Shown one piece after another: positions 2,512-45,773 of a DNA stretch of 64,000 bases. This DNA is from Halobacteriales archaeon SW_5_70_135. Lineage in GTDB: Archaea > Halobacteriota > Halobacteria > Halobacteriales > SW-7-71-33. The stretch covers positions 63,122 through 127,121 of the forward strand of contig PXSK01000036.1 in assembly GCA_003022865.1 (NCBI GenBank), given 5' to 3'. The notes beneath the pieces were generated by a model. The model did not search any database. It was not told where the DNA came from and was given only the letters and a program-made list of their open reading frames with translations. Made by a program: the position numbers and the translations under genes. Numbering within the stretch: position 1 is the first letter of the stretch; every line of letters begins with the position of its first letter.

Positions 2512-3756
2512 TCACTCCCCGCGGAGGAAGGCGGCGACCTCCTCGGGGGTGACCCGGATGCCGCCGCCCTGCGCGAACCGCGGGGAGCCGCCGCCACCGC
2601 CGCCGAACGTCTCCGTGACGGCGTCGACGACCGCGCCGGCGTCGGCCGCGTCACCGTCGGCGGCGACGGCGACGAACGTCGACCCCGACTCGCCCGCGAG
2701 CGCCACGGCGTCGGCGCGGTCGCCGGCCGCCTCGCGCAGCGCGCTCTCGACGTCGTTCGCGTCGACGCCCTCGACCGTGCCCGCCGCCAGCGTGTGTCCG
2801 TCGCGCTCGACGGTGTCGAGGTCGGCGACCGTCCCCGCGAGCGCTCGCTCGCGCAGCGCGGCGGTCTCGTCTTCCAGGCGTCCGATCTCCTCGTGCAGGC
2901 GCTCGATTTCCGTCGGCAGGTCGTCGACGCCCACGCCGGCGGTCCGGGCCGCCGAGAGGAGACTGCGCTTCTCGGCGGCGCGACGGGAGACGCCGGTCGG
3001 GCCGACGGCGAACTCCACGCGGGTCGTCCCCTCGCCCGGGTTCGACCGTTCGAGGACGGTGATCGGCCCGATGGCCGCCGTGTTCGAGACGTGGGTGCCG
3101 CCACAGGCCGCCCAGTCCCACCCCTCGACGGTGACGACGCGGACGGTGTCGGCGTCGGTCAGGACGCCCTCCTCGGTCTTCGTGTTGTAGGCGATCTCCT
3201 CGCGCTCGTACGCCTCAGCCGTCGTGAACTGCTCCCACGAGACGTCGCGGGCCTCCCACACTGCGCGATTGACGAGTCGCTCCAGTTCGACGAGCGTCGC
3301 GTCGTCGACCCCGTCGACGGCGAGGTCGACGCGGACCTTCTCCTCGTCGATGCCGAAGCCGCCGTAGCCCAGCTCGTCGAACAGTCGCCGCCCCGCGCCG
3401 TAGAGGACGTGACTCGCGGTATGAGCACGGGCGCAGTAGCGGCGGAACGTCTCGTCCACCGCGCAGGCGACGGTGTCGCCGGCGTCGAACGCCGGCGCTT
3501 CGGCGAGGCGGTGGACGTGGCTGCCGTCCTCGTGGCCGACGTGCTCGACCCGGCTGTCGCCGATCGTGCCGCGGTCGGCGGGCTGACCGCCGCTCCGGGC
3601 GTAGAAGAACGAGCGGTCCAGTGCGACCCGTCGCCCGTCGACGGACTCGACGGTCGCCTCGAAGCTCGTCACGTCCGGCCGCAGCGCCGCCGGCTGTGCG
3701 TCGACGTCCGCCACCGTCTCTCGCTCCGGGTCTGGGTTCGCCTCCTGCTCGCTCAC
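2512..3756 (-). CDS. alaX: Alanyl-tRNA editing protein AlaX-L (threonyl/alanyl tRNA synthetase second additional domain plus DHHA1-like C-terminus)
   Basis: 414-aa ORF with editing-site motifs HTASHVL and CGGTHV and a C-terminal GGGGGG/GGG box, typical of AlaX-L. Confidence 0.85.
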   Translation of the reverse strand: MSEQEANPDPERETVADVDAQPAALRPDVTSFEATVESVDGRRVALDRSFFYARSGGQPADRGTIGDSRVEHVGHEDGSHVHRLAEAPAFDAGDTVACAVDETFRRYCARAHTASHVLYGAGRRLFDELGYGGFGIDEEKVRVDLAVDGVDDATLVELERLVNRAVWEARDVSWEQFTTAEAYEREEIAYNTKTEEGVLTDADTVRVVTVEGWDWAACGGTHVSNTAAIGPITVLERSNPGEGTTRVEFAVGPTGVSRRAAEKRSLLSAARTAGVGVDDLPTEIERLHEEIGRLEDETAALRERALAGTVADLDTVERDGHTLAAGTVEGVDANDVESALREAAGDRADAVALAGESGSTFVAVAADGDAADAGAVVDAVTETFGGGGGGSPRFAQGGGIRVTPEEVAAFLRGE

Positions 3757-3804
3757 GTCTTACGGGACGGCGCCGGCGACGAAAAGCTCTCCCCGGCCCT
3801 GCCG

Positions 3805-4761
3805 CTACCGCCGGGCGTCCGCCGCCAGCAGCCGCTCGAGCAGCGCCGTCTGTGCGTGCCGGCGGTTCTCGGCCTGCCGCCAGACGACGGACCGGTCACT
3901 CTCGACGACGGCGTCGGTCACCTCCGCGCCGCGATGAGCGGGCAGACAGTGCATGAACGCGGCGTCCGCCGGCAGCAGCGAGGCGTCCACCTGGAACCCT
4001 CCGGTCTCGAAGGTCGCCAGCCGCTCCGCCCGGTCGGAGTGGTTCATGCTCACCCAGGCGTCCGTGTAGACGACGTCCGCGCCCGCGACGGCCGTTTCGG
4101 GGTCGTGCGTGACCGTCGGGGCGTCGCCGAGCGCCGCCGCCCGGTCGAGCGTCGCGTCGTCGAGGCCGTGTTCCGGCGGCGTCGCCACCGTCAGGTCGAC
4201 GCCGGTCGCCGCACAGCCGAGCGCGAACGACCGGGCGACGTTGTTCCCGTCGCCGACCCAGGCGGCGGTGGCGCCGTCGAGGTCGCCCGCGACCTCGCGC
4301 ACGGTCAGCAGGTCCGCGAGCGTCTGGCAGGGGTGGGCGCGGTCGCTGAGGGCGTTCACGACGGGCACGTCGGCGTAGGTGGCGAGCTCCGTCAGCGACT
4401 CGTGGTCCTCGACGCGGGCCACGATCGCGTCGGTGTACCCCGCCAGACACCGCGCCGTGTCCCGCAGCGGCTCGCCGCGGGACAGTTGGGTCTCGCCCGG
4501 ACCCATGAACACGGTGTCGCCGCCGAGGTCGGTCACCGCGCGCTCGAACGAGACCCGGGTTCGCGTCGACGGCTGCTCGAACAGGAGCACGACCGAGCGT
4601 CCGACCAGCGCCCGTGACGGCGGCGGGTCACGTGAGCGCCCGAACGCCGCCGCGGCGTCGAGCAGCGCCGTCAGCTCGTCGGCGTCGAGGTCGTCCACGT
4701 CCAGCAGGTGACGGACGGGAGCGTCGTCCCCGTCGTCCTGGCCCTCGGTCGCGGCCGTCAC
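3805..4761 (-). CDS. argF: Ornithine carbamoyltransferase
   Basis: Contains STRTR, HPCQ and HCLP motifs (FEQPSTRTRVSFE, DRAHPCQTLADL, FMHCLPAHRG). Start set to GTG 4761, which overlaps the upstream stop as GTGA. The track ORF 3805..5502 N-terminal extension is Arg-rich junk. Confidence 0.9.
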   Translation of the reverse strand: MTAATEGQDDGDDAPVRHLLDVDDLDADELTALLDAAAAFGRSRDPPPSRALVGRSVVLLFEQPSTRTRVSFERAVTDLGGDTVFMGPGETQLSRGEPLRDTARCLAGYTDAIVARVEDHESLTELATYADVPVVNALSDRAHPCQTLADLLTVREVAGDLDGATAAWVGDGNNVARSFALGCAATGVDLTVATPPEHGLDDATLDRAAALGDAPTVTHDPETAVAGADVVYTDAWVSMNHSDRAERLATFETGGFQVDASLLPADAAFMHCLPAHRGAEVTDAVVESDRSVVWRQAENRRHAQTALLERLLAADARR

Positions 4762-34356: not shown

Positions 34357-34740
34357 TCACTCCTCGCTCTCGTCGATCCAGGCGAGGCATCTGTCGATGA
34401 AGCCGACGAGCTGTTTCGCGGCCTCCGGATCGAGCGTCACCAGCGTGCCGGTCGACTCGTCGTGGGGGAACTGCATCACGACCCCCTTCTCGTAGGTCAC
34501 GATCGAGCAGTTCAGCTCCCCGAGCCGGTACGACGTCTCCAACGCGGTCAGTTCCTCGTGTTCTCGCCGCAGCCCCTCGACGATCGCCTCGATCTCCGCC
34601 GAAGTGTACTGTGACTGGAGGTCGTCGCGCAGGTAGAGAAGTTCGTACTCCTCTCCGTCGTAGTAACCGACGGCCCGCAGGAGGTCTCCCGCCCGGTGTT
34701 GCAAGAACTCACAGAGTTCCTCGGTGACGCCGACAGTCAT
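34357..34740 (-). CDS. Hypothetical acidic cytoplasmic protein (127 aa)
   Basis: Only the last 127 codons of track ORF 34357..36717 look coding (MTVGVTEELCEFLQHRAGDLLRAVGYYDGEEYELLYLRDD...). ATG at 34740. The rest is antisense to the S9 peptidase gene. Confidence 0.65.
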   Translation of the reverse strand: MTVGVTEELCEFLQHRAGDLLRAVGYYDGEEYELLYLRDDLQSQYTSAEIEAIVEGLRREHEELTALETSYRLGELNCSIVTYEKGVVMQFPHDESTGTLVTLDPEAAKQLVGFIDRCLAWIDESEE

Positions 34741-34772
34741 GCTCACGTTTGTGAGCGGACAAGAATAAAACG
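34741..34772 (-). promoter_or_regulatory. Palindrome GCTCAC-GTTT-GTGAGC abutting the start codon, plus a TATA-like TTTTATTC
   Basis: The perfect 6-bp inverted repeat at 34741-34756 lies between the minus-strand TATA (34761-34772) and ATG 34740, which is an operator-like position. Confidence 0.35.
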
Positions 34773-34929
34773 TCGGTCCGGCTCGGTACCGTCGCCCGCC
34801 GTGCCGTCCGACCCCCGACCGACGGGGACTCGCCGGCTGTCGGACCGCTCCCGGGCGGTCCGCGGGCTCCCGTCGGGGCCGGCTCCGTGTCACCGAAAGC
34901 GGTTTGCCCCGCGTGTTCACAGGACTGCC

Positions 34930-36741
34930 ATGGCCTACGACATCGAGCGCTACCTCAACGTCCGCGGGGCCGGCGGCGCCTCGCTCGGACCGGACGGTCG
35001 GCTCGCCTTCCTCATCGACACGACCGGCGTCGACCAGGTGTGGACGCTCGACGAGCCGGGCGGGTGGCCCGCACAGCGCACCTTCTACGACGAGCGGGTC
35101 ACCTTCGCGTCGTACTCGCCGGAGCGTCCGGAGCTGATGTTCGGCATGGACGAGGGCGGCAACGAGCGCGCGCAGTTCTACCGCCTCGACGACGACGGTG
35201 ACGAGGTGACGAACCTCACCCGCCACCCCGAGGCGAAACACAACTGGGGCGGCTGGGGGCCGGACGGCGACCGCTTCGTCTTCTCCTCGAACCGCCGGGA
35301 CGAGAGCGTCTTCGACCTGTACGTTCAGGAGCGCGACGCCGTCGGCGAGGACGCCCGGCTCGTGCGCGAGACCGACGGCTGGTACACGCCGGCGGGCTTC
35401 TCGCCCGACGGCGACCGGGTGATCGTCGTCCAGGCGCACTCCTCGTTCGACCAGGACGTCTACGTGCTCCACACGGAGAGCGGCGCGATGGGCCACCTCA
35501 CCCCCCACGAGGAGCGGGTGCGCTACGGCAGCACCGAGTGGGGTCCCGACGGCGAGGCGGTCTACTGCACCACCGACCGGGGCGCGGACACCACGTACCT
35601 CGCGCGGATAGACGCCGAGACCGGCGACCTCGACGCCGTCGTGGAAGGCGGCGACTACAACGTCGACGGCGTCTCGCTCGACCGCGACGCCGGACGGCTC
35701 GTCTACTCCCGCAACGTCGACGGCTACACGGAGCTGACGGTGGGCGAACTCGACGACGGCGAGGTCCGCGAACACCCGACGCCGGACCTGCCGGGCGACC
35801 TGGCGGGCGGCGTCTCCTTCGGCCCGGACGCCGAGCGGTTCGCCGTTACCGCCTACGGGGCGACGGACAACCCCGACGTCTACGTCGTCGACGTCGAGAC
35901 CGGCGACGCCGAGCGCTGGACCCACGCCTCGACGGCCGGCGTCCCGCCGGAGTCGTTCCGGGCGCCCGAGCTCGTCAGCGTCGAGAGCTTCGACGGCCTG
36001 GAGGTGCCCGCCTTCTTTACCCTGCCGGCGGACGCCCCGGCGGGGGAGACGCCCGTCGTCGTCGACATCCACGGCGGCCCGGAGAGCCAGCGCCGCCCCG
36101 GCTTCCACGCCGTGAAACAGTACCTGCTGAGCCGCGGCTACGCCGTCCTGGAGCCGAACGTCCGCGGCTCCTCGGGCTACGGCCGGGAGTACACCCACCT
36201 CGACGACGTCGAGAAGCGAATGGACTCCGTCGCCGACGTCGAGGCGGCCGTGGAGTGGCTCCACGACCGCCCGGCCGTCGACCCCGACCGTATCGCCGCG
36301 ATGGGCGGCTCCTACGGCGGCTTCATGGTGCTGGCCTGTCTCACCGAGTATCCGGACCTGTGGGCCGCCGGCGTCGACGTCGTCGGCATCGCCGACTTCG
36401 TCACCTTCCTCGAGAACACCGGCGAGTGGCGCCGCTCGCTCCGCGAGGCGGAGTACGGCTCGCTGGAGGCGGACCGCGAGTTCCTCGAGTCGGTGAGTCC
36501 GATAAACCACATCGACGCCGTCCGGGCGCCGCTGTTCGTGCTCCACGGCGAGAACGACCCGCGGGTGCCCGTCGGCGAGGCCGAGCGGATAGTCGAGCAG
36601 GCCAGCGAGTACGTCCCCGTCCGGAAACTCGTCTTCGAGGACGAGGGCCACGGCTTCTCGAAGCTGGAGAACCGGATCGAGGCCTACTCCGCGATCGCCG
36701 ACTTCCTCGACGAACACGTCGGCGCCCCCGAGGGCGTCTGA
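34930..36741 (+). CDS. Prolyl oligopeptidase family (S9) serine peptidase with N-terminal beta-propeller (acylaminoacyl-peptidase-like)
   Basis: 603 aa. Propeller repeats are followed by a catalytic domain with GGSYGGF (nucleophile Ser), and the Asp/His region LHGENDPRVP...DEGHGF. Confidence 0.85.
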   Translation: MAYDIERYLNVRGAGGASLGPDGRLAFLIDTTGVDQVWTLDEPGGWPAQRTFYDERVTFASYSPERPELMFGMDEGGNERAQFYRLDDDGDEVTNLTRHPEAKHNWGGWGPDGDRFVFSSNRRDESVFDLYVQERDAVGEDARLVRETDGWYTPAGFSPDGDRVIVVQAHSSFDQDVYVLHTESGAMGHLTPHEERVRYGSTEWGPDGEAVYCTTDRGADTTYLARIDAETGDLDAVVEGGDYNVDGVSLDRDAGRLVYSRNVDGYTELTVGELDDGEVREHPTPDLPGDLAGGVSFGPDAERFAVTAYGATDNPDVYVVDVETGDAERWTHASTAGVPPESFRAPELVSVESFDGLEVPAFFTLPADAPAGETPVVVDIHGGPESQRRPGFHAVKQYLLSRGYAVLEPNVRGSSGYGREYTHLDDVEKRMDSVADVEAAVEWLHDRPAVDPDRIAAMGGSYGGFMVLACLTEYPDLWAAGVDVVGIADFVTFLENTGEWRRSLREAEYGSLEADREFLESVSPINHIDAVRAPLFVLHGENDPRVPVGEAERIVEQASEYVPVRKLVFEDEGHGFSKLENRIEAYSAIADFLDEHVGAPEGV

Positions 36742-36789
36742 CGGCGTCCGTACGAGCGGACTGACACCCGCAGCGAGATCGTCGACGGG

Positions 36790-39700
36790 TCAGGCCAGCC
36801 ACTCGTCGGGTTTCGTGTCGTAGTCGACGTCGTCGGCGACGATGCCGAGCTCCTCGACGCGTTCCCAGTCGAGTTCGTCCATCTCGACGCGGTCGCCGTC
36901 GTAGCGGACCCGCAGGCCGGCCTCCTCGGGCTCGGGCTCCTTGTCCCGGCGTTTCGCCACCTCGACGTCGTGTTCGTCGACCTGCTTGACGACGGTGACG
37001 AGGTTCACCGGCCGGCCCCACAGCTCGAACACCCGTTCGAGGGTGCGCTTGGCCTGCTCGACGTCGAGCATCACGCCGTTGTAGTGGTGTGCCAGCAGCA
37101 GCTCGTTGCGGTTGCGGTAGTTGCCGTCCCTGACGGTGATCGTCGGCTTGCCGAAGTTGGTGAACTGCAGCAGCAGCTTCCGCTTGACGTCCTCGTAGTC
37201 GGTGGAGGCGACGCGGAACTGGCCCGCCGCCTGCGAGTACTCGTAGGTGAAGTACTCGTTGTCGTCGACGAACTCCTGGGTGAGGAACTCGTCGAGGAAG
37301 GTGACGTCGTTGTGGCTCTCGCGGATCTCGAACATGCGCCGCCAGCCCGCCCGGTAGTCGACGTCGGCGAGGGCCTCCTCGACGGAGTCGTAGCGGTCGT
37401 TCTCGAACATGTACCGACCGACGCGCTCGAGTTCGGACTTCGAGATCGACCCGAGAAAGCCCCGGAACTGCGGGCGCAGCAGCGAGAAGTGCCGCCACGC
37501 CAGCCCCTCGTAGCTGAGCACCTTCCACGGGTAGCGGTCGACGTCCACCTCGCCGTCGCGGGCGCGCTCTATGTTCTCGCGGTCGAGATAGCGGTCGTCG
37601 ACCGCGTCCAGCGCGTCCAGGGTCTCGTTTGTGGGCGCGGCGATCGCCTCCGGCGGGGACAGCGTCTCGAGCACGTCGTCGGCGTCGACGGCCTCGGAGA
37701 AGTTCCGCCAGGTGATCCCCTCGACCCGCAGCAGCTTCTCGACGACGGCCTCGCGGTTGGTGGTGTTCTCGACGTACTCCCACAGCTCCAGGCCGAGCTT
37801 GTAGGGGTTGAGCCCGGGCGAGCCGAGCACCTTCGCCATGTGGTCGGCGTAAGTCATGAACTCGTCCGCCTCGGCGAACCCCTCGTCGGCCATCATCTTC
37901 GACTCCCAGTAGGAGTTGTGGTTGATCAGACCGGCGGCGGCGTAGCGGTGAGTCTCCTCGACGGAAATGTCGTAGACGGTGCCGGTTCCCTCCTCGGTCG
38001 AGACGACTTCGTCCGTCCACGACTCCGTTTCGAACCAGGCGAGGTCGTCGAGATACGCCCACAGACTGTCGGCCTTCTCGTCGTATCCGAAGCCGATCTC
38101 CTCGGCGAACTCACGGGCCGACGCCCCGGTCAGGTGAACGTGGTAGCAGCCGTCGTTCTGTTCGCGGCGTCGCGTGAGCATCCCGAAGTTCGCGAGCAGG
38201 AGCTGGACCTGCTCGCTCATCTCCTCGCTGCTGGTGCTGAGGATCGCTCCCTGGCCGCCGGCGTAGCCGTCGGCGTCGAACAGTCCGCGGAGGAACTCCG
38301 CGACGACCGACCGGGGCGACCGGAGGACCGCCTCGGGGACAGTCTTCTCGTCCGAGGCGTCCCCGTCCGGTAGGTCGAGCGACGGAGCCTCGGTCAGCAT
38401 CTCGACCAGGTGCCCCGAGTAGACGTAGGTCCGCCACCGGCTACCTTGCTCCTCCACGCTGGGGTCGACGCCGAACAGCTCCGTGGCGAGTCCGGCGAAC
38501 TCCTCGGCGCGCTCGCGGCGAGCGGCGGTGAAGCCGACGTGACCCGCAGCGGTCGAGACGTGGCCGTCGCCGACGAGCAGCCCGAGCAGGCGACCGAACG
38601 CCTCGGTCACCTCGTCCGGAACACGGATCGGGTCCCGTTCCGCCACACCTCGGTTCGCCCCGTCGTACGCCTCCAGCGCCGCCTCGATCGCCTCGGCGCG
38701 CTCCGCACGGCCGACGTCGCGGTACCGCATGACCGTCCAGACGGAGACGCCGGCCTCGTCGGCGACGTCACCGAGACTGGTGTACTCGGGTGGCGACCAG
38801 TCGATCGCCGCGTAGTCGTCTGCCCAGAGACCGTCGCCGCCGGAGACCTCGATCTCGTCGCCGGGTTCCAGTTCGTCGAGCCGCACCCACGAGCCGTCCG
38901 GACGACGCACGCGGTGGTTGTTCGACCCCGTCACCTCGAACCCGCGTCGCGTCTCGACGGTGACGGTGTCGTGGTCCGGGATGACGTTCGAGTCGTACAC
39001 CTCGCGTGGTGCGTCGCCGTCCGACACCGTCGTGTGGTCATCGACCACCGCCTCCATCGGGAGCACGCCGTCGTCGGTGAACACCGGCGTCTCGGGGGCG
39101 ACACAGGCCCACCCCTCGTTAAGTATTTTTGTCATCTTCTGCGGCGCGAAATAGTACGCTTCGGCACGCAGCATCTCCAGCACGTCGCGCTGCCAGTCGG
39201 CCATCTCGACGGCCTTCCCGGCGTCGTCGTCGTACCGCTTGCCGTGGGCTCGCAGGAAGCCGAGTAGGTCCTTCTCGGGCTTCTCGGGGTACGAGCGGGC
39301 CGGCGCGTCCTCACCCTGGCCGTCGACCCACTCGTCGTCGAACACCTGCTCGCGGACCTCCTCGGAGATGTCGAGCTCGCCGAGCTGGTCGGCGACGTCC
39401 TCGTCGATGTCGTCGCCGGCGTCGTACTCGTCGAACTCGTAGCGGTCGGCCCCGAAGGAGCGGTACTGGTCGATGTTGTCCTCGAGCGCCAGCGCGTGGT
39501 CGATCCACCGCTCGACCTCGTCGCGGTCGATCGAGGGGTCGGACATGTACTCCTCGATGGCGTCGGCGTGGCGTTCGAGCATCTGGGCGGCACCGACGCC
39601 GTCGTCGAACATGCCGTACCACTCGTTGTTGGCGAAGAAGTCGGAGTGTGCCTCGACGTGGGTGATGACGGCCTTCTGGTCCGCCGTCGTGTTGGACTCC

Positions 39701-39993
39701 TGGAGGAAGGCGTTGGCGGGGTCGTCGTTGTTGACGATCTCGAAGGCCTTGCCCATGCCGTACTGGCCGCGCTTGCGGTGGCGGTCGTACTGCATCCCCC
39801 AGCGCCAGTGCGGGTAGCGCCGCTGGAAGCCGCCGTAGGCCATCAGCTCGTGCATCTCGTCGTAGTCGACTACCCAGTAGTTCACCGGGAACGGGTCGAG
39901 CCCGAGCTTGCGGGCGAGACGGTTGGCCTCCTCGACCACGCGCTCCAGGTCGCCGGCGATGCGCTGTTTCGTGAATCGTCCTGGCTGTGTCAT
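36790..39993 (-). CDS. spoVR: SpoVR/YcgB-family protein interrupted by an intein (extein about 670 aa)
   Basis: N-extein ...PQKMTKILNEGWA and C-extein SYWESKMMADEGF... rejoin into the conserved SpoVR NEGWASYW motif. It is the last gene of the prkA-yeaH-spoVR module, and its ATG lies 1 nt after the yeaH stop. Confidence 0.9.
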   Translation of the reverse strand: MTQPGRFTKQRIAGDLERVVEEANRLARKLGLDPFPVNYWVVDYDEMHELMAYGGFQRRYPHWRWGMQYDRHRKRGQYGMGKAFEIVNNDDPANAFLQESNTTADQKAVITHVEAHSDFFANNEWYGMFDDGVGAAQMLERHADAIEEYMSDPSIDRDEVERWIDHALALEDNIDQYRSFGADRYEFDEYDAGDDIDEDVADQLGELDISEEVREQVFDDEWVDGQGEDAPARSYPEKPEKDLLGFLRAHGKRYDDDAGKAVEMADWQRDVLEMLRAEAYYFAPQKMTKILNEGWACVAPETPVFTDDGVLPMEAVVDDHTTVSDGDAPREVYDSNVIPDHDTVTVETRRGFEVTGSNNHRVRRPDGSWVRLDELEPGDEIEVSGGDGLWADDYAAIDWSPPEYTSLGDVADEAGVSVWTVMRYRDVGRAERAEAIEAALEAYDGANRGVAERDPIRVPDEVTEAFGRLLGLLVGDGHVSTAAGHVGFTAARRERAEEFAGLATELFGVDPSVEEQGSRWRTYVYSGHLVEMLTEAPSLDLPDGDASDEKTVPEAVLRSPRSVVAEFLRGLFDADGYAGGQGAILSTSSEEMSEQVQLLLANFGMLTRRREQNDGCYHVHLTGASAREFAEEIGFGYDEKADSLWAYLDDLAWFETESWTDEVVSTEEGTGTVYDISVEETHRYAAAGLINHNSYWESKMMADEGFAEADEFMTYADHMAKVLGSPGLNPYKLGLELWEYVENTTNREAVVEKLLRVEGITWRNFSEAVDADDVLETLSPPEAIAAPTNETLDALDAVDDRYLDRENIERARDGEVDVDRYPWKVLSYEGLAWRHFSLLRPQFRGFLGSISKSELERVGRYMFENDRYDSVEEALADVDYRAGWRRMFEIRESHNDVTFLDEFLTQEFVDDNEYFTYEYSQAAGQFRVASTDYEDVKRKLLLQFTNFGKPTITVRDGNYRNRNELLLAHHYNGVMLDVEQAKRTLERVFELWGRPVNLVTVVKQVDEHDVEVAKRRDKEPEPEEAGLRVRYDGDRVEMDELDWERVEELGIVADDVDYDTKPDEWLA
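37915..39105 (-). other. Intein with LAGLIDADG homing-endonuclease domain (397 aa: Cys1 ... His-Asn; +1 Ser)
   Basis: Codon TGT at 39105-39103 gives Cys1 after NEGWA. Block A is CVAPETPVFTDDG, block B GFEVTGSNNHRV. The LAGLIDADG motifs are LLGLLVGDGHV and FLRGLFDADGYA. Block F is VYDISVEETHRYAAAG. Block G is LINHN (AAC at 37917-37915), followed by Ser (TCC). Confidence 0.88.
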
Positions 39994-39994
39994 G

Positions 39995-41296
39995 TCACTG
40001 TGCCTCCGTCGAGAGGATCTCGTAGATGGCGTCGGTGACGTCCTCCGGGCCGGCCACGTACGCCACCGCGACGTCCGAGCTGCCCCCGAAGTGACGCTCG
40101 ACCTCCTCGGCGTGGGTGGCGTTGATCGCGTTGCCGCTCGGCTGCGTTTCGACGTACGCGTGGAGGTTCGCGGGGATCTGCTCCATCAGCGGGATCACCC
40201 GCTCTTCGGTGTCGTTCGAGGAGTTCTCGGAGTCGCCCGCCGCGAACACGTAGCGGTTCCAGTCGTCGAAGGGGTACTGCTCCAACAGCTCCGCGGCGAG
40301 GTCGTACGCGCTCGAAATCTTGGTGCCGCCGCCGGAGCGGATGCCGAAGAACTCCTCGCGCTCGACCTCCCAGGCCTCGGCGTCGTGGGCGATGTAGACG
40401 AACTCGGCGTTGTCGTACTTGCCCTGTAAATACCAGTCGAGCGGCGTGAACGTGCGCTCGACCAGCTCGCGTTTCTTCTCTCGCATCGAGCCGGAGACGT
40501 CGCGGACGTTGACGACGACGACGTTCCTCTCGCGCTCCTCGACGGTCTGCGGGTGGCGATAGCGTTCGTCCTCCCGCCTGAACGGGACGTGGTCGATCCC
40601 CCCGGCACGGATGCGCTCGGTCGTCGAGGTGTAGTCGTTCGCCGCCTCGAACTCGTCCAGTGAGGCGTACGCCGAGCGCTCCTCGCGGGGGATCTCGTCG
40701 TACGCCTCGGTGAGCCAGGCCTTCGAGACGGGCACCGAGTCCTCGCGGGCGTACTCGAAGGCCCGCGACGGGCCGACGCCCGCCACCCGCAGCAGCTCGC
40801 GGAGGTACTCCTCGTCGAAGTCCATCGCCAGCTTGCGTTTCAGGCCGCGCTTGAACATCCGCTCGAAGTCGAGCGTGGAGTCCGGACCGGTCCGCGTCAG
40901 CTCGGTGTACGGTCCGTCCTTCTCCTCGACGACGCGTTTACCCTTCGGCTCCAGCTCCAGGCCGAGCTCCTCGTCGAGCTCCTCGGCGAACTCCTCGGGG
41001 TCCATCTCGTAGTACTCGTGCTCGCCGTCCTCCTCGCCGGGCTCGCCGCCCTCCTCGCCCCCTGGTTGGGGCTGGGGCTCCCCGACGGGGTCGCCGACGT
41101 CGGCGTCGCCCTGGCCGACCCCGCCCTGGTCGCGGCGGTCGTACTCGAACTCCGGCAGGTCGACGATCTTGATCGGCACGCGCACCTCGTCCGGCAGCGA
41201 CTCGCCCAGGTCGCCGTACTGGATGAACTCCGAGAGGTCCTCGCGGTTGTGCTCGCCCACCTCCCGAAAGCGGTCGAGGTCGTCTCTCAGTCCCAT
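39995..41296 (-). CDS. YeaH/YhbH family protein (DUF444/UPF0229, vWA-like)
   Basis: Trimmed to ATG 41296 ([13 protein letters not shown]...). Has a MIDAS-like [13 protein letters not shown]. Conserved partner of PrkA and SpoVR. Overlaps the prkA2 end by 10 nt. Confidence 0.85.
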
Positions 41297-43701
41297 CGGT
41301 AGCTCACCTGGCCCATGACGTGCCGGCTCGTCAGCTCGGCGGAGGCCGGCGAGTAGTCGAACAGTTCCATCATGCGCTCGACGGTCTGCTCCTTGACCGC
41401 CGCCGTCTCCGTGCCGGAGGGCGGGTCGTCCCACTGGCGCGGGTCCAGGTCCTCGTGGATGCGGGCGACGTCGTCCCAGTCGTTGGTTTCGAGCACCGAA
41501 CGGATGACGGGGATGTCCGTGAGGTCGACGGCGTCGGCGGAGAAGTTCTCGCCGCGCTGCTCCCAGGCGTGGCGGTTCACCGCCGTGATCACCTTCTGCT
41601 CGCGGAACTGCTCGACCGCCGACGAGGGACTGTTGCCGTCGTAGCTCTCCTCGCCGAACCGTCCCAGATGTTCGGTCTCGAACAGTTTCATCTTCAGCGG
41701 GTTCGGCTCGACGCGCTCGCCGCGGTCGTTTTCGAGGGTCTCGTCGGTGCCCCAGGCGTAGACGTGCTCGACGTACTCGGCGACGGTCGTCTCGTCGACG
41801 CGGCGGTCGTGCATCATCGCGTCGAGCACGTCCGCCTCCTGGCGCTCGAAGACGTGGTTTTTCACCGGCACGACGCGGTTCTCGAACTCCGTGCGCTCGC
41901 CCGGCGAGAACACCGGCGCCTCGGCGAGCCCCTCGGCCATCTCGTTGAGTACGTCACGGGGCATGATCACGTCCTCGACCCCGAGCTCGGGGTGGTGACG
42001 GTCGCGGTCGGTCTGCAACAGGTCGGCGACCACGTCCCGGGTATACGTCACCGGCACGCCGTGGTCGCCGTCGCGGGCGTCGTCGTCGAACTCGAAGTCC
42101 TCGACGTGGCGGCGCTCGTCGCCCTCCTGGAGGTAGCCCCGGTCGAACAGCAGTGCCTTGTCCACCAGGTCGAGCCCGGCCGGCAGGTCCTCCTCGTCCA
42201 GCCGGGTGACGACGGCGTACAGCGCCGCCGCCTCGACGGCGTGGGGCGCGATCTCGCGGTCGCTCACCGAACCGGCGGCGTCTTTCACCGTCATGGAGAC
42301 GGGCTCGCGGATCCGCGCCTCGAGTTCGGCGTAGTCCCCGGCGTCCCAGACGTCGGTCTCGCCGGTGAGCTCCCGCCTGACGAGTTCGGTCTCCAGCGAG
42401 AGGTTCGTCAGGTAGACGAAACGGTGCCGGTCGAGTCGTCGCTTCAGGGCCTTCAGCGGGTCGCGACCGCCCTGTTCGGCGTGCTGGTTCAGCTGCGCTT
42501 CGAGGTCGGGGTTCGAGATGATCACCAGCTGGGTGTCGATGTCCATCCCGATGCCCTTGTCCAGCTTCACCGTCCCCTCGTCGGGGACGTTCAGCAGCTT
42601 CCGCAGCAGGTCGGCATGCTGGGCGGCGTCCTCGACGACGGTGAGACAGCCGTTGCCCTGCGAGAGCACGCCGTCGTAGGAGAACGCCTGTGGGTTCTTC
42701 CGACCCCGCGAGCCCAGCTCCTGGAGCATCCCGCGCATCCAGGAGCCGACGAGTCGCTCCTTCGGGGGACCCTCGTCCTCGCTGTGGAGCACCCCGACGC
42801 CCTGGTCGACGTCGACGACGTAGTTCTTCACCCGGAGGTGTGCGTCGTCGGTGATCGCCGAAAAGAGGTCCTCGACGCCGTCGCGGCGGTACTGCTCCTC
42901 CAGGTACTCGTAGGCCTCCCGCGAGAACGGGTCGAGCCGGCCCTCGACGCGGACGGGAATGTGGTCCGCACTCGTCTCGTTCAGCCTGGCGAGCAGGTCA
43001 CGGCGCACCTCGGGCGGAAACACCGTCAGCGGGTGTGCCTGTACGGGGGACTCGTACCAGTCGTCCTCGCTGGTGACCTCGTCGGCGTACGAGAGCCCAC
43101 GGGAGTCGCCGCCGGCGGCGACGTTCCACTCGACGGTGTAGCGGCGTCCCTCGGGCGTCTTCGAGTACTCGCGCAGACCGTTGATCAGACAGCGCTTCAG
43201 CTCCGATTTCCCGGTCGCCGTCGGGCCGTCGAACCAGACGATCTTCTCGTCCTTGCCGCGACCGGCGGCGATCGAGCGCAGGTCGTCGACGAAGGCGTTC
43301 AGCGTCTCCGTGTTGCCGAGAATGGCGTGTTCGCCGTCGTTGTGCGGGTCGTCGAAGAAGCGGTACCGCTCCTTCCGTTCGCCCTCCTCGACGACGGTAC
43401 GCGTGCCCGCGGCCTCGATCGCCTCCAGCAGGTACTTCGAGGCCTGGGAGGCGATCGAGGGCTCCTCGAAGACGCGGTCGACGTACGCCGACAGCGACAT
43501 CGGCGCCTCGTAGGTGGCCGACAGCGCCTCGTCGGCGGCGTCGACGTAGGCACCACCGCCGGGGTCGGCCGCGTCGCGGTCGCTGCCGTGCACTCGACGG
43601 CCGAGGCCGCCGTCCCCGTGGTCGCGGTCGCGGTTGCGGTCGCGGTCGCCGTCGCTGTCGCGGCTACGGTCACGGTCGCCGTTCCGGTCGGTGTCGCTCA
43701 T
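41287..43701 (-). CDS. PrkA-family AAA-type protein kinase paralogue 2 (804 aa) with N-terminal Asp/Arg low-complexity region
   Basis: ATG 43701 shares a T with the prkA1 TGA (ATGA). Walker [15 protein letters not shown]. PrkA-like N-terminal and C-terminal domains. N-terminus is [32 protein letters not shown]. Confidence 0.8.
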
Positions 43702-45773
43702 CAGTTCTCCATCTCGGTCTTGGCGACCTCCGCGCCGGCGAACTCGAGCACCTCGCGGGCGCCCTCCTCGGAGTAGCCCTGGTCGGTCAGCGCCTCGACC
43801 CAGGCGTTGCGCTCCTCGTCGTCGTACTCGTTCGTGGAGACCAGCGCCGAGAAGTTGATGTTGTGTTTCTTGTCCTCCCACAGCTTGCGTTCGAGCGCAC
43901 GCCGCAGCCGCTCGTTGTCCGTCGGGTCGAAGGCCTCCCCCTCCCGCGCCCGGCGGGACACCCAGTTCGAGACCTCCTGCCGGAAGTCGTCTTTCCGGTC
44001 TTCGGGCAGGTCGAGCTTCTCCTCGACCGAGCGGAGGAACGTCTCGTCCGGCTCCTGCTCCCGGCCGGTGAGTTCGTCCTCGACGGTGGCGTCGTCGATG
44101 TACGCCATCACGTGGTCCATGTACTTCTCGCCCTGGCGCTGGATCTCGTCGACGTCGTACGCCAGTGCGTGGCGCACGTCGTCGATGGCGCGCTCCTTGT
44201 ACTCCTCGCGGACCGTCTCCAGGTAGCGGTAGTACGTCTCGAAGTTCTCCTCGGGGATCGAGCCGTGGTGTTCGAGGTTCTCCTCGAAGTGGTTGAAGAC
44301 GGTCAGCGGCGAGAGAAAGCCCCGGTCGCGGTGTTTGGAGTCCATGATCGCCTCGGCGATCTCGTCGCCGATGAACCGCGGGGAGACGCCCTCCATCCCC
44401 TCGCCGATCTCGGCGGTGCGCTCGGCCTCCTCGCGCAGCTTGCGCAGGTCGATGTCCTCGGACTCGTCGACGTCGCCGTTGTACGCCTTCGCTTTCTGGA
44501 CCAGGCCGACGGTCTCGGAGTCGGGCTCCTCGACCCGGGTGAGCACGCCGAACAGCCCGGCCATTTCGAGGGTGTGCGGTTCGACGTCGATGTCGGGCAC
44601 GTCGGCGTTGCGCAGCATCTTCCGGTAGATCTGCGCCTCGTCGTCGTAGCCGAGCACGTAGGGGAAGTCGATCCGCTTCGTGCGGTCGTTGAACGCCTCC
44701 ATCTTCTCGTCGCCCTTCTTGTCCTTGTACTCGGGCATGTTCGTCCGCCCGACGATCACCTGGTCGATGTCGATGCGAGGGTTGTTCTGGGGCTTGACGG
44801 TCTGCTCCTGGGTGGCGTGCAGGAAGTCGTAGAGGAACTCCCGCTGGAGCTTCAGCAGCTCCTCGCCGGAGAAGACCCCGCGGTTCGCGTTGCAGAACGC
44901 GCCGGAGTAGTCGAACGCCCGCGGGTCGCTCTCGCCGTAGACGGCGATCTTCGAGTAGTTGACGTCGCCGGTGAGCTCGGTCTCGTCCTGGTTTTTCTTG
45001 TCCTTCGGCTCGAACGTCTCCAGGGCCTGGCGCTTGTTCTCGTCGGCGATCAGGCGGACGACCTCGACGTGGTTCTCGAGGACGGCCTGCAGGTCGTCGT
45101 CGTAGTGTGCGAGCAGCCGGTCCATGTACAGCTCGCTCTCGGGGTCGAGCGACTGCTCGTTGCGGATCGTGTAGGGGGCGTCGAGCTCCTCGTTGAGCCC
45201 CTCGACGACCCGCTCGCGCTGCTCGACCGGCAGCAGCACCAGCGGGTCCTGGTTCATCGGCGACCGTACCGTGTCGTCGGCGGGGTCCTGGTCGCCGACG
45301 ACCGAACAGAGGTCGACCCACCGGAACGTGTACATCCGGCCCTCCTCGCGCATCGTGTAGTCCTCGAAGTACTTGCGGATCTGGCGGTCGAAGTGTGACT
45401 TGCCGGAGCCGACCGGCCCCAGGAGGAGCTTGATGCGCCGCTCCGGTCCCAGGCTGCGGGCGCCCGACTTCACCTTGTTGACGAACTCGTGGATCGCCTC
45501 GTGGATGACCCGCCCGTAGAAGGTGTTCTCGCCGTCGTTCAGCGGGTCCTCGCTGGCGAGGCGGTACTCGACGACGCCGTCTTCCTCGTCGTACTCCGTG
45601 CCGTAATAGTCGAACATGTCCGCCACGCGCTGGTTGGCGTTGCGGGCGACGGTCGGGTCGTCGTACAGTTCGTCGAGATACCACTCGAAGCTCTTCGTCT
45701 CCCGCAGGTCCTCGGGCATCGAGGCCTGGTAGCTCTCACTCAGGTCAGCGAGCGTGTCGGTGTTTCTGCTCAT
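43701..45773 (-). CDS. prkA: PrkA/YeaG-family serine protein kinase (690 aa)
   Basis: ATG 45773 (MSRNTDTLADLSESYQ...). Walker A LLGPVGSGKSHF. Collinear resemblance to YeaG/PrkA (FYGRVIHEAIHEFVNK..., GVFSGEELLKLQREFLYDFL...). The track ORF upstream extension is junk. Confidence 0.88.
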   Translation of the reverse strand: MSRNTDTLADLSESYQASMPEDLRETKSFEWYLDELYDDPTVARNANQRVADMFDYYGTEYDEEDGVVEYRLASEDPLNDGENTFYGRVIHEAIHEFVNKVKSGARSLGPERRIKLLLGPVGSGKSHFDRQIRKYFEDYTMREEGRMYTFRWVDLCSVVGDQDPADDTVRSPMNQDPLVLLPVEQRERVVEGLNEELDAPYTIRNEQSLDPESELYMDRLLAHYDDDLQAVLENHVEVVRLIADENKRQALETFEPKDKKNQDETELTGDVNYSKIAVYGESDPRAFDYSGAFCNANRGVFSGEELLKLQREFLYDFLHATQEQTVKPQNNPRIDIDQVIVGRTNMPEYKDKKGDEKMEAFNDRTKRIDFPYVLGYDDEAQIYRKMLRNADVPDIDVEPHTLEMAGLFGVLTRVEEPDSETVGLVQKAKAYNGDVDESEDIDLRKLREEAERTAEIGEGMEGVSPRFIGDEIAEAIMDSKHRDRGFLSPLTVFNHFEENLEHHGSIPEENFETYYRYLETVREEYKERAIDDVRHALAYDVDEIQRQGEKYMDHVMAYIDDATVEDELTGREQEPDETFLRSVEEKLDLPEDRKDDFRQEVSNWVSRRAREGEAFDPTDNERLRRALERKLWEDKKHNINFSALVSTNEYDDEERNAWVEALTDQGYSEEGAREVLEFAGAEVAKTEMEN

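Follow-up and report, generated by a model that had tools for sequence, protein, structure and literature searches.

The SpoVR-family gene in the window analysed here—the whole 64,000-nt stretch of contig PXSK01000036.1, from Halobacteriales archaeon SW_5_70_135—very probably contains a canonical intein of class 1, lodged in an invariant SpoVR motif, NEGWA/S (the slash marks the insertion point), and equipped with a LAGLIDADG endonuclease of two motifs and a small helix-turn-helix (HTH). The kind is known, and this is a well-formed instance of it: the same intein occurs at the same spot in many bacteria and haloarchaea, and for that reason the suggestion in the original prediction that it might be a new intein allele falls. 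The gene and its parts are as follows.

36790..39993, minus strand: SpoVR precursor gene, 1067 aa plus stop (ORF list; Pfam SpoVR PF04293, E=2.8e-78, and SpoVR_C)
39106..39993, minus strand: N-extein, precursor aa 1-296, with the C-terminal end MTKILNEGWA
37915..39105, minus strand: intein, 397 aa, precursor aa 297-693; calculated 43.4 kDa, pI 4.26
36790..37914, minus strand: C-extein, aa 694-1067 plus stop; begins SYWESKMM, with Ser at +1 as the nucleophile

When the gene is translated (in Python), Cys297 directly follows KILNEGWA and LINHN693 directly precedes SYWESKMM, so that the coordinates, the 397-aa length, the Cys start and the His-Asn end first proposed for the insert are reproduced exactly. 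Deleting the insert in silico recreates NEGWASYW, as had also been proposed: the 670-aa product carries NEGWASYWES, and its Pfam SpoVR match, residues 15-352, runs unbroken over the junction and improves from E=2.8e-78 to 2.9e-85, with SpoVR_C (PF24755) matched at E=7.5e-10. The calculated masses are 121.6 kDa for the precursor, 78.3 kDa for the joined exteins and 43.4 kDa for the intein. The five residues just ahead of the insertion point, N292, E293, G294, W295 and A296, are invariant in our SpoVR alignments (A1 and A3). Neither a solved SpoVR structure nor, by sequence, any SpoVR relative in the PDB was found. In an AlphaFold2 model of the extein, made from 60 intein-free sequences, the site lies within a predicted helix (285-306), with a mean pLDDT of 66 overall and 51-66 near the site; this model is too weak to build on.

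Intein-free SpoVR proteins align to the precursor with the single, clean gap at NEGWA/SYW that the original prediction anticipated (alignment A1). The closest of them comes from the same species: this allele, L001, is 97.6% identical in nucleotide sequence across the gene, and is collinear with window positions 41909..35403 at 97-98% nucleotide identity, bar the precise absence of 1191 bp, which is the intein. The intein is both present and absent, then, within one species, and among the best 120 haloarchaeal SpoVR clusters found with an extein-only query it is absent from about 112; 111 intein-free haloarchaeal clusters were identified. Among the intein-free alleles, L001 has Ser at +1, and Ala there (GCC, as in L123) is common. 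That the 397-aa segment might instead be a built-in domain of a longer form of SpoVR, never excised, or an artefact of assembly, is barely conceivable given this gap in so many orthologues, the same-species allele included, the complete set of splicing residues together with a HINT and LAGLIDADG fold, and the recurrence of the insert in about 100 independent haloarchaeal assemblies. Of the 48 differences that separate L001 from the window, 15 fall within 150 nt of the insertion site on either side (binomial P=0.003). A co-conversion tract was considered on this account and set aside as not robust, since P=0.003 holds when the interval is tied to the site beforehand and becomes P=0.10 as a scan statistic. 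Five codons 5' of the insertion point, at 39121..39132 on the minus strand, four A/T-ending codons stand in a row (ACA AAA ATA CTT, encoding TKIL) in a gene whose GC3 is about 0.95 (shuffle P about 0.004); the run is common to L001, is found in part in Halovenus salina (L044), and is missing from two other intein-free haloarchaeal alleles.

The intein itself divides into the following parts.

38806..39105, minus strand: N-terminal HINT half, intein aa 1-100; block A Cys1, block B G60-S61-N-N-H64
38632..38805, minus strand: HTH insert, intein aa 101-158 (SLGDVADEAGVSVWTVMRYRDVGRA...); Pfam LacI HTH, E=2.8e-4
38041..38631, minus strand: LAGLIDADG homing-endonuclease domain, intein aa 159-355; PF14528, E=8e-24, in two stretches
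38563..38592, minus strand: LAGLIDADG motif 1, RLLGLLVGDG, acidic residue D180
38266..38295, minus strand: LAGLIDADG motif 2, FLRGLFDADG, acidic residue D279
37915..38040, minus strand: C-terminal splicing part, intein aa 356-397; block F VYDISVEETHRYAAAG, block G LINHN; TIGR01443 intein_Cterm

The splicing domain is recognized from several directions. TIGR01445 (intein_Nterm, NCBIfam) spans intein aa 1-67, and the N-terminal HINT half is rich in beta-strands in the AlphaFold2 model; several NCBIfam models of intein-containing proteins match the insert at E values of about 1e-14 to 1e-15; and a sequence search of the PDB returns inteins at E=2e-9. The Pfam model Intein_splicing (PF14890) is matched at 36.5 bits, barely over its cut-off of 35.8. 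The AlphaFold2 model of the intein has a pLDDT of 87.8, and Foldseek matches it best to archaeal inteins that bear an endonuclease, with E down to 4.6e-23. Pfam, NCBIfam, the PDB search and AlphaFold2 with Foldseek concur, in short and at levels well past chance, on the full-length LAGLIDADG intein of the original prediction. In 28 haloarchaeal copies (alignment A2), C1, G60-S61-x-x-H64 (block B), D379 and H386 (block F) and N395-H396-N397 (block G) are invariant, and the +1 residue is Ser in every intein-bearing allele seen. The textbook block B motif is TxxH, with Thr. Blocks A, B, F and G and both LAGLIDADG motifs are all present, as first described, but block B departs from the canonical form in having Ser at the position of the Thr; in the bacterial orthologues this position is Ser, Ala or Gly. 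With a nucleophile as its first residue, the block B His, a C-terminal His-Asn followed by Ser at +1, a clean gap in its relatives and a HINT fold, the insert has the hallmarks of class 1, and on sequence and modeled structure it is to be placed in that class, its endonuclease being of the two-motif LAGLIDADG type.

Two further parts interrupt the splicing domain. The HTH segment has predicted helices at 111-118, 122-131 and 137-149 in the AlphaFold2 model; Pfam LacI is matched in five of the six intein family members tested, one of them over the gathering cut-off (29.3 bits), and the insert is present in the bacterial SpoVR-intein orthologues as well. The endonuclease that follows has the features of a single-chain LAGLIDADG enzyme: two motifs, each with a conserved acidic residue, and a duplicated core fold. 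This alpha-beta-beta-alpha-beta-beta-alpha core, residues 160-355 or so, is matched by Foldseek to I-DmoI, I-Tsp061I and WhiA at target TM values of 0.7-0.77, and G179, D180, G181 and H182 in the first motif region, and D277, D279 and G280 in the second, are invariant in the 28 haloarchaeal copies.

Among inteins of known structure, those of TliVMA and PhoVMA (7qss, 7qsu, 7qst), PI-PkoII (2cw7), PI-PfuI (1dq3) and PI-SceI (1vde) likewise have a HINT domain split by a two-motif endonuclease, although their host proteins are other than SpoVR. Against these solved inteins Foldseek gives E values of 4.6e-23 to 3e-13 and query TM values of 0.48-0.66, at sequence identities of only 14-18%. The endonuclease domain aligns with that of the TliVMA intein in the PDB sequence search (E=2e-9); this VMA alignment begins at residue 159, and so does not take in the LacI-like HTH (101-158). 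The accessory DNA-binding regions of PI-SceI and PI-PfuI are of other kinds.

The SpoVR intein is widespread. About 100 other haloarchaeal clusters, formed at 90% identity and including complete genomes, bear this intein, some of them under the JGI name ‘SpoVR/YcgB/intein/homing endonuclease’. A scan of species-representative genomes found at least 55 complete and at least 8 partial inteins at T-K-x-x-N-E-G-W-A/C...HN/S, and same-site inteins in at least nine bacterial phyla, Chloroflexota, Myxococcota, Planctomycetota, Armatimonadota, Acidobacteriota, Bipolaricaulota and Gemmatimonadota among them; the tally was taken from the first 120 matches, and these taxon counts are lower bounds and no census. 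The bacterial copies are 28-52% identical to the window intein from end to end, with the HTH and the endonuclease counted in, and among 1.84 billion proteins the best non-haloarchaeal matches are SpoVR proteins with an intein at about aa 255-298. SpoVR inteins also appear on IMG/VR contigs in an alignment-based scan; an IMG/VR scan with the window intein as a single sequence returned zero relatives. By these sequence comparisons, the window intein is a member of one orthologous SpoVR-intein family that extends across many bacterial phyla and the Halobacteria. Other organisms have two more SpoVR inteins, placed at the invariant motifs EIVNN/ and HVEAH/S.

Full-size bacterial members of the family (from Polyangia, Sandaracinaceae, Kofleriaceae, Longimicrobiaceae, Gemmata, Roseiflexus and Ktedonobacterales, among others) occupy the same site and share the four-part layout—N-terminal splicing part, HTH, LAGLIDADG endonuclease, C-terminal splicing part—in 393-414 aa, the closest of them being 50-52% identical to the window intein at full length. 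They differ from the haloarchaeal copies in charge, with a mean pI of 8.0 against 4.3-4.7, and in the start of the C-extein, which is S[FY]WH in bacteria and SYWE here; in a rough neighbor-joining tree the haloarchaeal copies form a separate clade. A preprint (10.1101/2025.01.02.630785) reports that InBase lists a SpoVR intein from Chloroflexus aurantiacus, which it describes as having an antisense endonuclease. The Chloroflexus sequences that we compared, from C. aggregans (B8GD24), Chloroflexus sp. Y-396-1 and Chloroflexus sp. L061, have the intein in the same host protein at the same point (NEGWA/C...NHN/SYWH), and to judge from these congeners the InBase intein of C. aurantiacus J-10-fl probably occupies that site too. 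They are about 37% identical to the window intein across the aligned parts but, unlike it, are reduced to 276 aa, with the HTH gone and the endonuclease largely lost. L061 contains no antisense LAGLIDADG ORF; the antisense ORFs there are 95-120 aa long and lack the motif.

The site was, then, already on record. The protein is deposited in GenBank with 100% identity as PSQ38225.1, where it is named only ‘SpoVR family protein’, and to this are added the JGI intein names and the reported InBase entry. What had been said of haloarchaeal inteins at large fares better. A survey of 118 haloarchaeal genomes (Soucy et al. 2014, PMC4071816) counted 24 intein alleles, spread over 13 genes, among them cdc21, polB, pol-II, rfc, rir1, gyrB, top6B and udp, and agrees that the hosts are nearly all proteins of replication, repair or nucleotide metabolism, UDP-glucose dehydrogenase excepted. 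SpoVR is missing from that gene list. The SpoVR intein resembles the surveyed ones in kind of element, in class of host organism and in its patchiness within genera, but its host protein, from a module related to stress or sporulation, is no enzyme of replication or nucleotide metabolism.

If we read the family correctly, the intein probably splices and its endonuclease probably still cuts. The 121.6-kDa precursor would be translated first; Cys1 would then carry out an N-S acyl shift, Ser+1 would attack in a transesterification, and Asn397, aided by His396, would cyclize to free the 43.4-kDa intein and leave the exteins ligated as a 78.3-kDa SpoVR in which NEGWASYWES is restored. Intein-free spoVR alleles would then be cut site-specifically, at the NEGWA motif, by the released intein or by the precursor, with the HTH supplying DNA contacts, and repair from the intein-bearing copy would spread the element by homing. 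In the survey cited above, patchy distribution within genera was read as the outcome of homing and gene transfer (PMC4071816). The distribution of the SpoVR intein is patchy inside Natrinema, Halosimplex and Haloarcula, as expected of a homing element.

When 88 copies are compared in pairs, identity averages 0.666 between inteins and 0.660 between exteins, and intein and extein identities are correlated (r=0.63); most inheritance therefore seems to be vertical or within clades, and current homing in this lineage is putative. One could suppose that the intein splices with its endonuclease inactive, as a fixed, vertical passenger kept only because its imprecise loss ruins an essential SpoVR motif. 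The correlation and the equal means are in keeping with this, as are the full adaptation of the intein to an acidic, halophilic proteome and the decay of the endonuclease elsewhere: P0101 has AVAGAGRI and ADAAGAV where the LAGLIDADG motifs stand, and the Chloroflexus copies have no LAGLIDADG match in Pfam. We think it unlikely, while granting it some weight, since the catalytic Asp pair and the motif glycines are invariant in the 28 haloarchaeal copies, and the mean column conservation of the endonuclease (0.75) is on a par with that of the splicing domain (0.77-0.81, the C-terminal splicing part being highest at 0.81). The alleles with and without the intein that stand side by side at 97.6% identity, the patchiness in the three genera, and the pair P0080 and P0086, whose inteins are 99% identical and their exteins 85%, speak against a fixed passenger as well. 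The intein is a long-standing resident of the haloarchaea, as its acidic pI, the like divergence of intein and extein and the well-kept endonuclease indicate. A recent import was considered from base composition and rejected: GC is 0.69 in the intein versus 0.66 in the exteins, and GC3 0.89 versus 0.93-0.96, and because this gap is small and the pI acidic, no such import is argued.

SpoVR is the final gene of a prkA-prkA-DUF444-spoVR operon, whose upstream members are these.

39995..41296, minus strand: DUF444 (YeaH-like) gene, 433 aa; Pfam DUF444, E=6.5e-104; start set by comparison with L001
41287..43701, minus strand: PrkA-family gene 2, 804 aa; Pfam PrkA and AAA_PrkA
43701..45773, minus strand: PrkA-family gene 1, about 690 aa; Pfam PrkA, E=8e-74, and AAA_PrkA, E=4e-61; inferred start

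Stops and starts in the operon overlap or abut: the start of PrkA-family gene 2 overlaps the upstream stop as TGATG, and the DUF444 gene stops one base ahead of the SpoVR start. The linkage of SpoVR with two PrkA genes and a DUF444 gene agrees with a haloarchaeal signature gene cluster of this PrkA/DUF444/SpoVR kind (PMC3102087). Rfam and tRNA scans of the window found nothing relevant.

Since the intein interrupts the most conserved motif of SpoVR, the precursor is probably inactive, and one can imagine the intein as a conditional switch, responsive to salt, redox or starvation, that gates the PrkA/DUF444/SpoVR stress module post-translationally. Its position, its conservation to the same degree as its host, and the precedent of a Halobacterium intein whose conditional splicing is reportedly activated by salt (Reitter et al. 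2016, as cited in PMC10663303) would suit this idea. It is nonetheless improbable. The intein is missing from about 112 of the best 120 haloarchaeal SpoVR clusters and from the same-species allele, so that a regulatory role, if any, is dispensable, and an intact endonuclease and spread across phyla suit a selfish element. We give equally little credence to a retained switch that would keep SpoVR inactive until circumstances favor its use, and to the related notion that the allele travelled between bacterial phyla and Halobacteria in low-GC viruses whose spoVR genes bear this intein.

For the understanding of intein function in general, an endonuclease-bearing intein in SpoVR changes nothing. 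It does bear on annotation, in that PSQ38225.1 and its 100 or so haloarchaeal relatives, entered plainly as ‘SpoVR family protein’ and overlong by about 400 aa, deserve to be labeled as intein-containing, and it adds a host outside replication to the list for haloarchaea. Gene flow might be traced by its states of presence, absence and decay, as it has been with other inteins (PMC4071816). And since this intein and the two further SpoVR inteins all lie in invariant motifs—NEGWA/S, EIVNN/ and HVEAH/S—they mark these motifs as functionally critical to the protein.

Translation of the SpoVR-family gene runs through ...MTKILNEGWA to Cys297, continues for 397 aa to ...AAGLINHN693, and resumes with SYWESKMM; the coordinates and length first proposed for the insert are exact. 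The features discussed here are:

34696..36741, plus strand: S9 prolyl-oligopeptidase-family peptidase (Pfam Peptidase_S9, E=3e-45), convergent, downstream of spoVR
36790..39993, minus strand: SpoVR precursor ORF, 1067 aa (ORF list and translation)
37915..39105, minus strand: intein, 397 aa, Cys297 to N693
39121..39132, minus strand: four A/T-ending codons, ACA AAA ATA CTT, just 5' of the insertion point
41296..39995, minus strand: DUF444 gene, upstream of spoVR
43701..41287, minus strand: PrkA-family gene, upstream of spoVR
45773..43701, minus strand: PrkA-family gene, upstream of spoVR

Against the whole protein, the Pfam SpoVR match (E=2.8e-78) is broken into separated stretches. With the insert removed, a 670-aa product results in which SpoVR runs unbroken over the junction (residues 15-352, E=2.9e-85) and SpoVR_C is retained. 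Haloarchaeal SpoVR proteins without the intein align with one gap, at NEGWA|S, confirming the segment as an insertion rather than a constitutive domain. The sharpest case is P0079, encoded on ENA contig L001, which is collinear with 41909..35403 of the window at 97-98% nucleotide identity, the sole break being the precise absence of 37915..39105. One species-level population thus has both intein-plus and intein-minus alleles.

The insert itself has the signatures of an endonuclease-bearing intein. Pfam finds LAGLIDADG_3 in two stretches (E=8e-24) and Intein_splicing just over threshold (36.5 bits; cut-off 35.8); NCBIfam matches it to the intein parts of DnaB, GyrA, RNR, RFC, RNA polymerase A'', IF-2 and V-ATPase models (E=1e-15 to 1e-9), and to short intein N-terminal and C-terminal models. 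By sequence, its nearest relatives of solved structure are the Thermococcus and Pyrococcus VMA inteins, PI-PkoII and PI-PfuI, and these endonuclease-bearing inteins are also the top Foldseek matches (E=4.6e-23 to about 1e-13) of an AlphaFold2 model built from 28 haloarchaeal copies (mean pLDDT 87.8), followed by free-standing LAGLIDADG enzymes such as I-DmoI. The full catalytic set is present and invariant across those 28 copies: in intein numbering, Cys1; block B, G60-S61-x-x-H64, with Ser in place of the usual Thr; D379 and H386 of block F; N395-H396-N397 of block G, then Ser+1; and the motifs RLLGLLVGDG (D180) and FLRGLFDADG (D279). A three-helix segment (residues about 101-158) separates the N-terminal half of the splicing domain from the endonuclease. 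It matches LacI-type helix-turn-helix models in five of the six family members examined, in one case above the Pfam cut-off, and probably adds DNA contacts. Judging from this intact anatomy and from knowledge of the family, the precursor would undergo standard class-1 protein splicing, yielding a 78.3-kDa SpoVR and a 43.4-kDa intein (computed masses), and the intein would home by cleaving intein-free alleles.

Coupling among the four genes of the operon is tight, with stops and starts that overlap or abut. The stop of the first PrkA gene and the start of the second share TGATG (43699..43703), DUF444 overlaps the end of the second by 10 nt, and its stop lies one base from the SpoVR ATG (39993..39997). 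PMC3102087 describes this cluster—two PrkA, DUF444 and SpoVR—as a signature shared by all haloarchaeal genomes. The convergent S9 peptidase has an N-terminal beta-propeller, and its ORF as listed probably starts too far upstream.

A survey of haloarchaeal inteins counted 24 alleles in 13 genes, SpoVR absent (PMC4071816), and the haloarchaeal SpoVR-intein clade appears undescribed in the literature searched, where a single paper names SpoVR along with inteins. The original prediction's suggestion of a new allele does not hold, however: site, family and exact sequence (PSQ38225.1, 'SpoVR family protein', Halobacteriales archaeon SW_5_70_135, 100% identical over the precursor) are already in public databases. 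InBase has a SpoVR-like intein of Chloroflexus aurantiacus J-10-fl, according to a preprint (10.1101/2025.01.02.630785); those of Chloroflexus aggregans (B8GD24) and Chloroflexus sp. Y-396-1 occupy the same site but, unlike ours, are endonuclease-less, at 276 aa.

One genome per GTDB species was scanned with a DNA pattern for T-K-x-x-N-E-G-W-A-Cys. Among the 120 matches listed, 57 are SpoVR genes in which the Cys is native (NEGWACFWH), a feature so common in bacterial SpoVR/YcgB that the junction alone overcounts inteins about two-fold; such intein-free loci include L002, L006, L008, L016 and L019, and hosts Legionella, Halieaceae, Burkholderiales and Syntrophomonas. At least 55 complete and at least eight partial inteins (264-414 aa) among the matches listed lie exactly at NEGWA|C, in Chloroflexota, Myxococcota, Planctomycetota, Armatimonadota, Acidobacteriota, Bipolaricaulota, Fraserbacteria, Fervidibacter, Gemmatimonadota and Halobacteria. 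These inteins are homologous to ours over the full length, helix-turn-helix and endonuclease included. Among the matches listed, haloarchaeal copies are 66-70% identical to it, those of Longimicrobiaceae and Polyangia 50-52%, and those of Ktedonobacteria and Acidobacteriota about 30-38%. In a 1.84-billion-protein library the top non-haloarchaeal full-length matches are SpoVR with an intein at about aa 255-298, followed by multi-intein ribonucleotide reductases matched in the endonuclease part only.

Six IMG/VR contigs classed as viral (L124 to L129; 35-335 kb, 31-40% GC) carry DUF444 and SpoVR genes, the latter interrupted at the same site, NEG[FWL]A|C...HN|S, by an orthologous intein of full size (about 3001-4212 per locus; 34-40% identical over residues 1-397). 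SpoVR homologues also occur in GenBank phage records (megaphage LR756504, Ralstonia phage RsoM2USA, Thermus phages). Two SpoVR proteins from a representative-library search have a second intein besides that at NEGFA|C: P0130 (1351 aa) at ...IYEMVVN|C (FEIVNN motif) and P0139 (1244 aa) at ...MAHIIGH|C...AHN|SHFF (HVEAH|SDFF motif). Inteins are thus inserted at no fewer than three points in SpoVR, each within an invariant motif.

In intein-free haloarchaeal SpoVR clusters (P0079, P0105, P0108-P0120, P0415-P0512) the +1 residue is Ala (NEGWA-A-YWE) in 87 of 111 and Ser in 24; in all intein-bearing alleles it is Ser. An Ala+1 allele could support splicing only if its +1 codon were co-converted. 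Intein-free alleles with Ser+1, P0079 being one, may be susceptible to invasion or may have lost an intein precisely. Several intein-free proteins carry the name 'AbrB family transcriptional regulator' (P0115, P0439, P0441, P0442, P0451 and P0474 at NCBI; P0416 and P0465 in UniRef); Pfam gives them SpoVR and SpoVR_C only, and the name is probably a propagated misannotation. The A/T-ending tract stands out in a gene with GC3 of about 0.95 and 34 such codons in 670 (shuffle P about 0.004). L001 has three of the four codons, with ACG for ACA; intein-bearing Halovenus salina (L044) shares the tract partly; two intein-free haloarchaeal alleles (L122, L123) have GC-ending codons there. The tract could be a co-conversion relic from a low-GC donor, or reflect an endonuclease target preference.

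The full precursor retrieves about 100 clusters of haloarchaeal SpoVR of 1000-1100 aa that share its set of domains—Natrinema altunense, Halosimplex marinum, Halomicrobium katesii, Halovivax gelatinilyticus, Haloplanus, Halorhabdus, Haloparvum and Halorubrum among them—some bearing the JGI name 'SpoVR/YcgB/intein/homing endonuclease'. With an intein-free query, only about eight of the best 120 clusters have the intein, and it is patchy within genera: N. altunense and H. marinum have it, whereas N. soli, N. hispanicum, N. thermotolerans and H. carlsbadense do not. Haloarchaeal copies are acidic (pI 4.3-4.7, D+E 18-20%), as is the host protein (pI 4.46), whereas bacterial SpoVR inteins average pI 8.0; this points to long residence in haloarchaea, not to recent import. 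In pairwise comparisons of 88 full-size copies, identity averages 0.666 for the intein and 0.660 for the extein (r=0.63), and the endonuclease is about as conserved (0.75) as the splicing parts (0.77-0.81), a pattern that fits sustained selection on both activities and mostly within-clade inheritance. Inheritance has not been purely vertical: the inteins of P0080 and P0086 are 99% identical and their exteins 85%. P0101 is a decayed copy in which the motif aspartates and the helix-turn-helix are gone. Taken together, polymorphism within a species, decayed copies and the P0080/P0086 pair match the stages of the homing cycle, in which an element invades, becomes fixed, decays and is lost.
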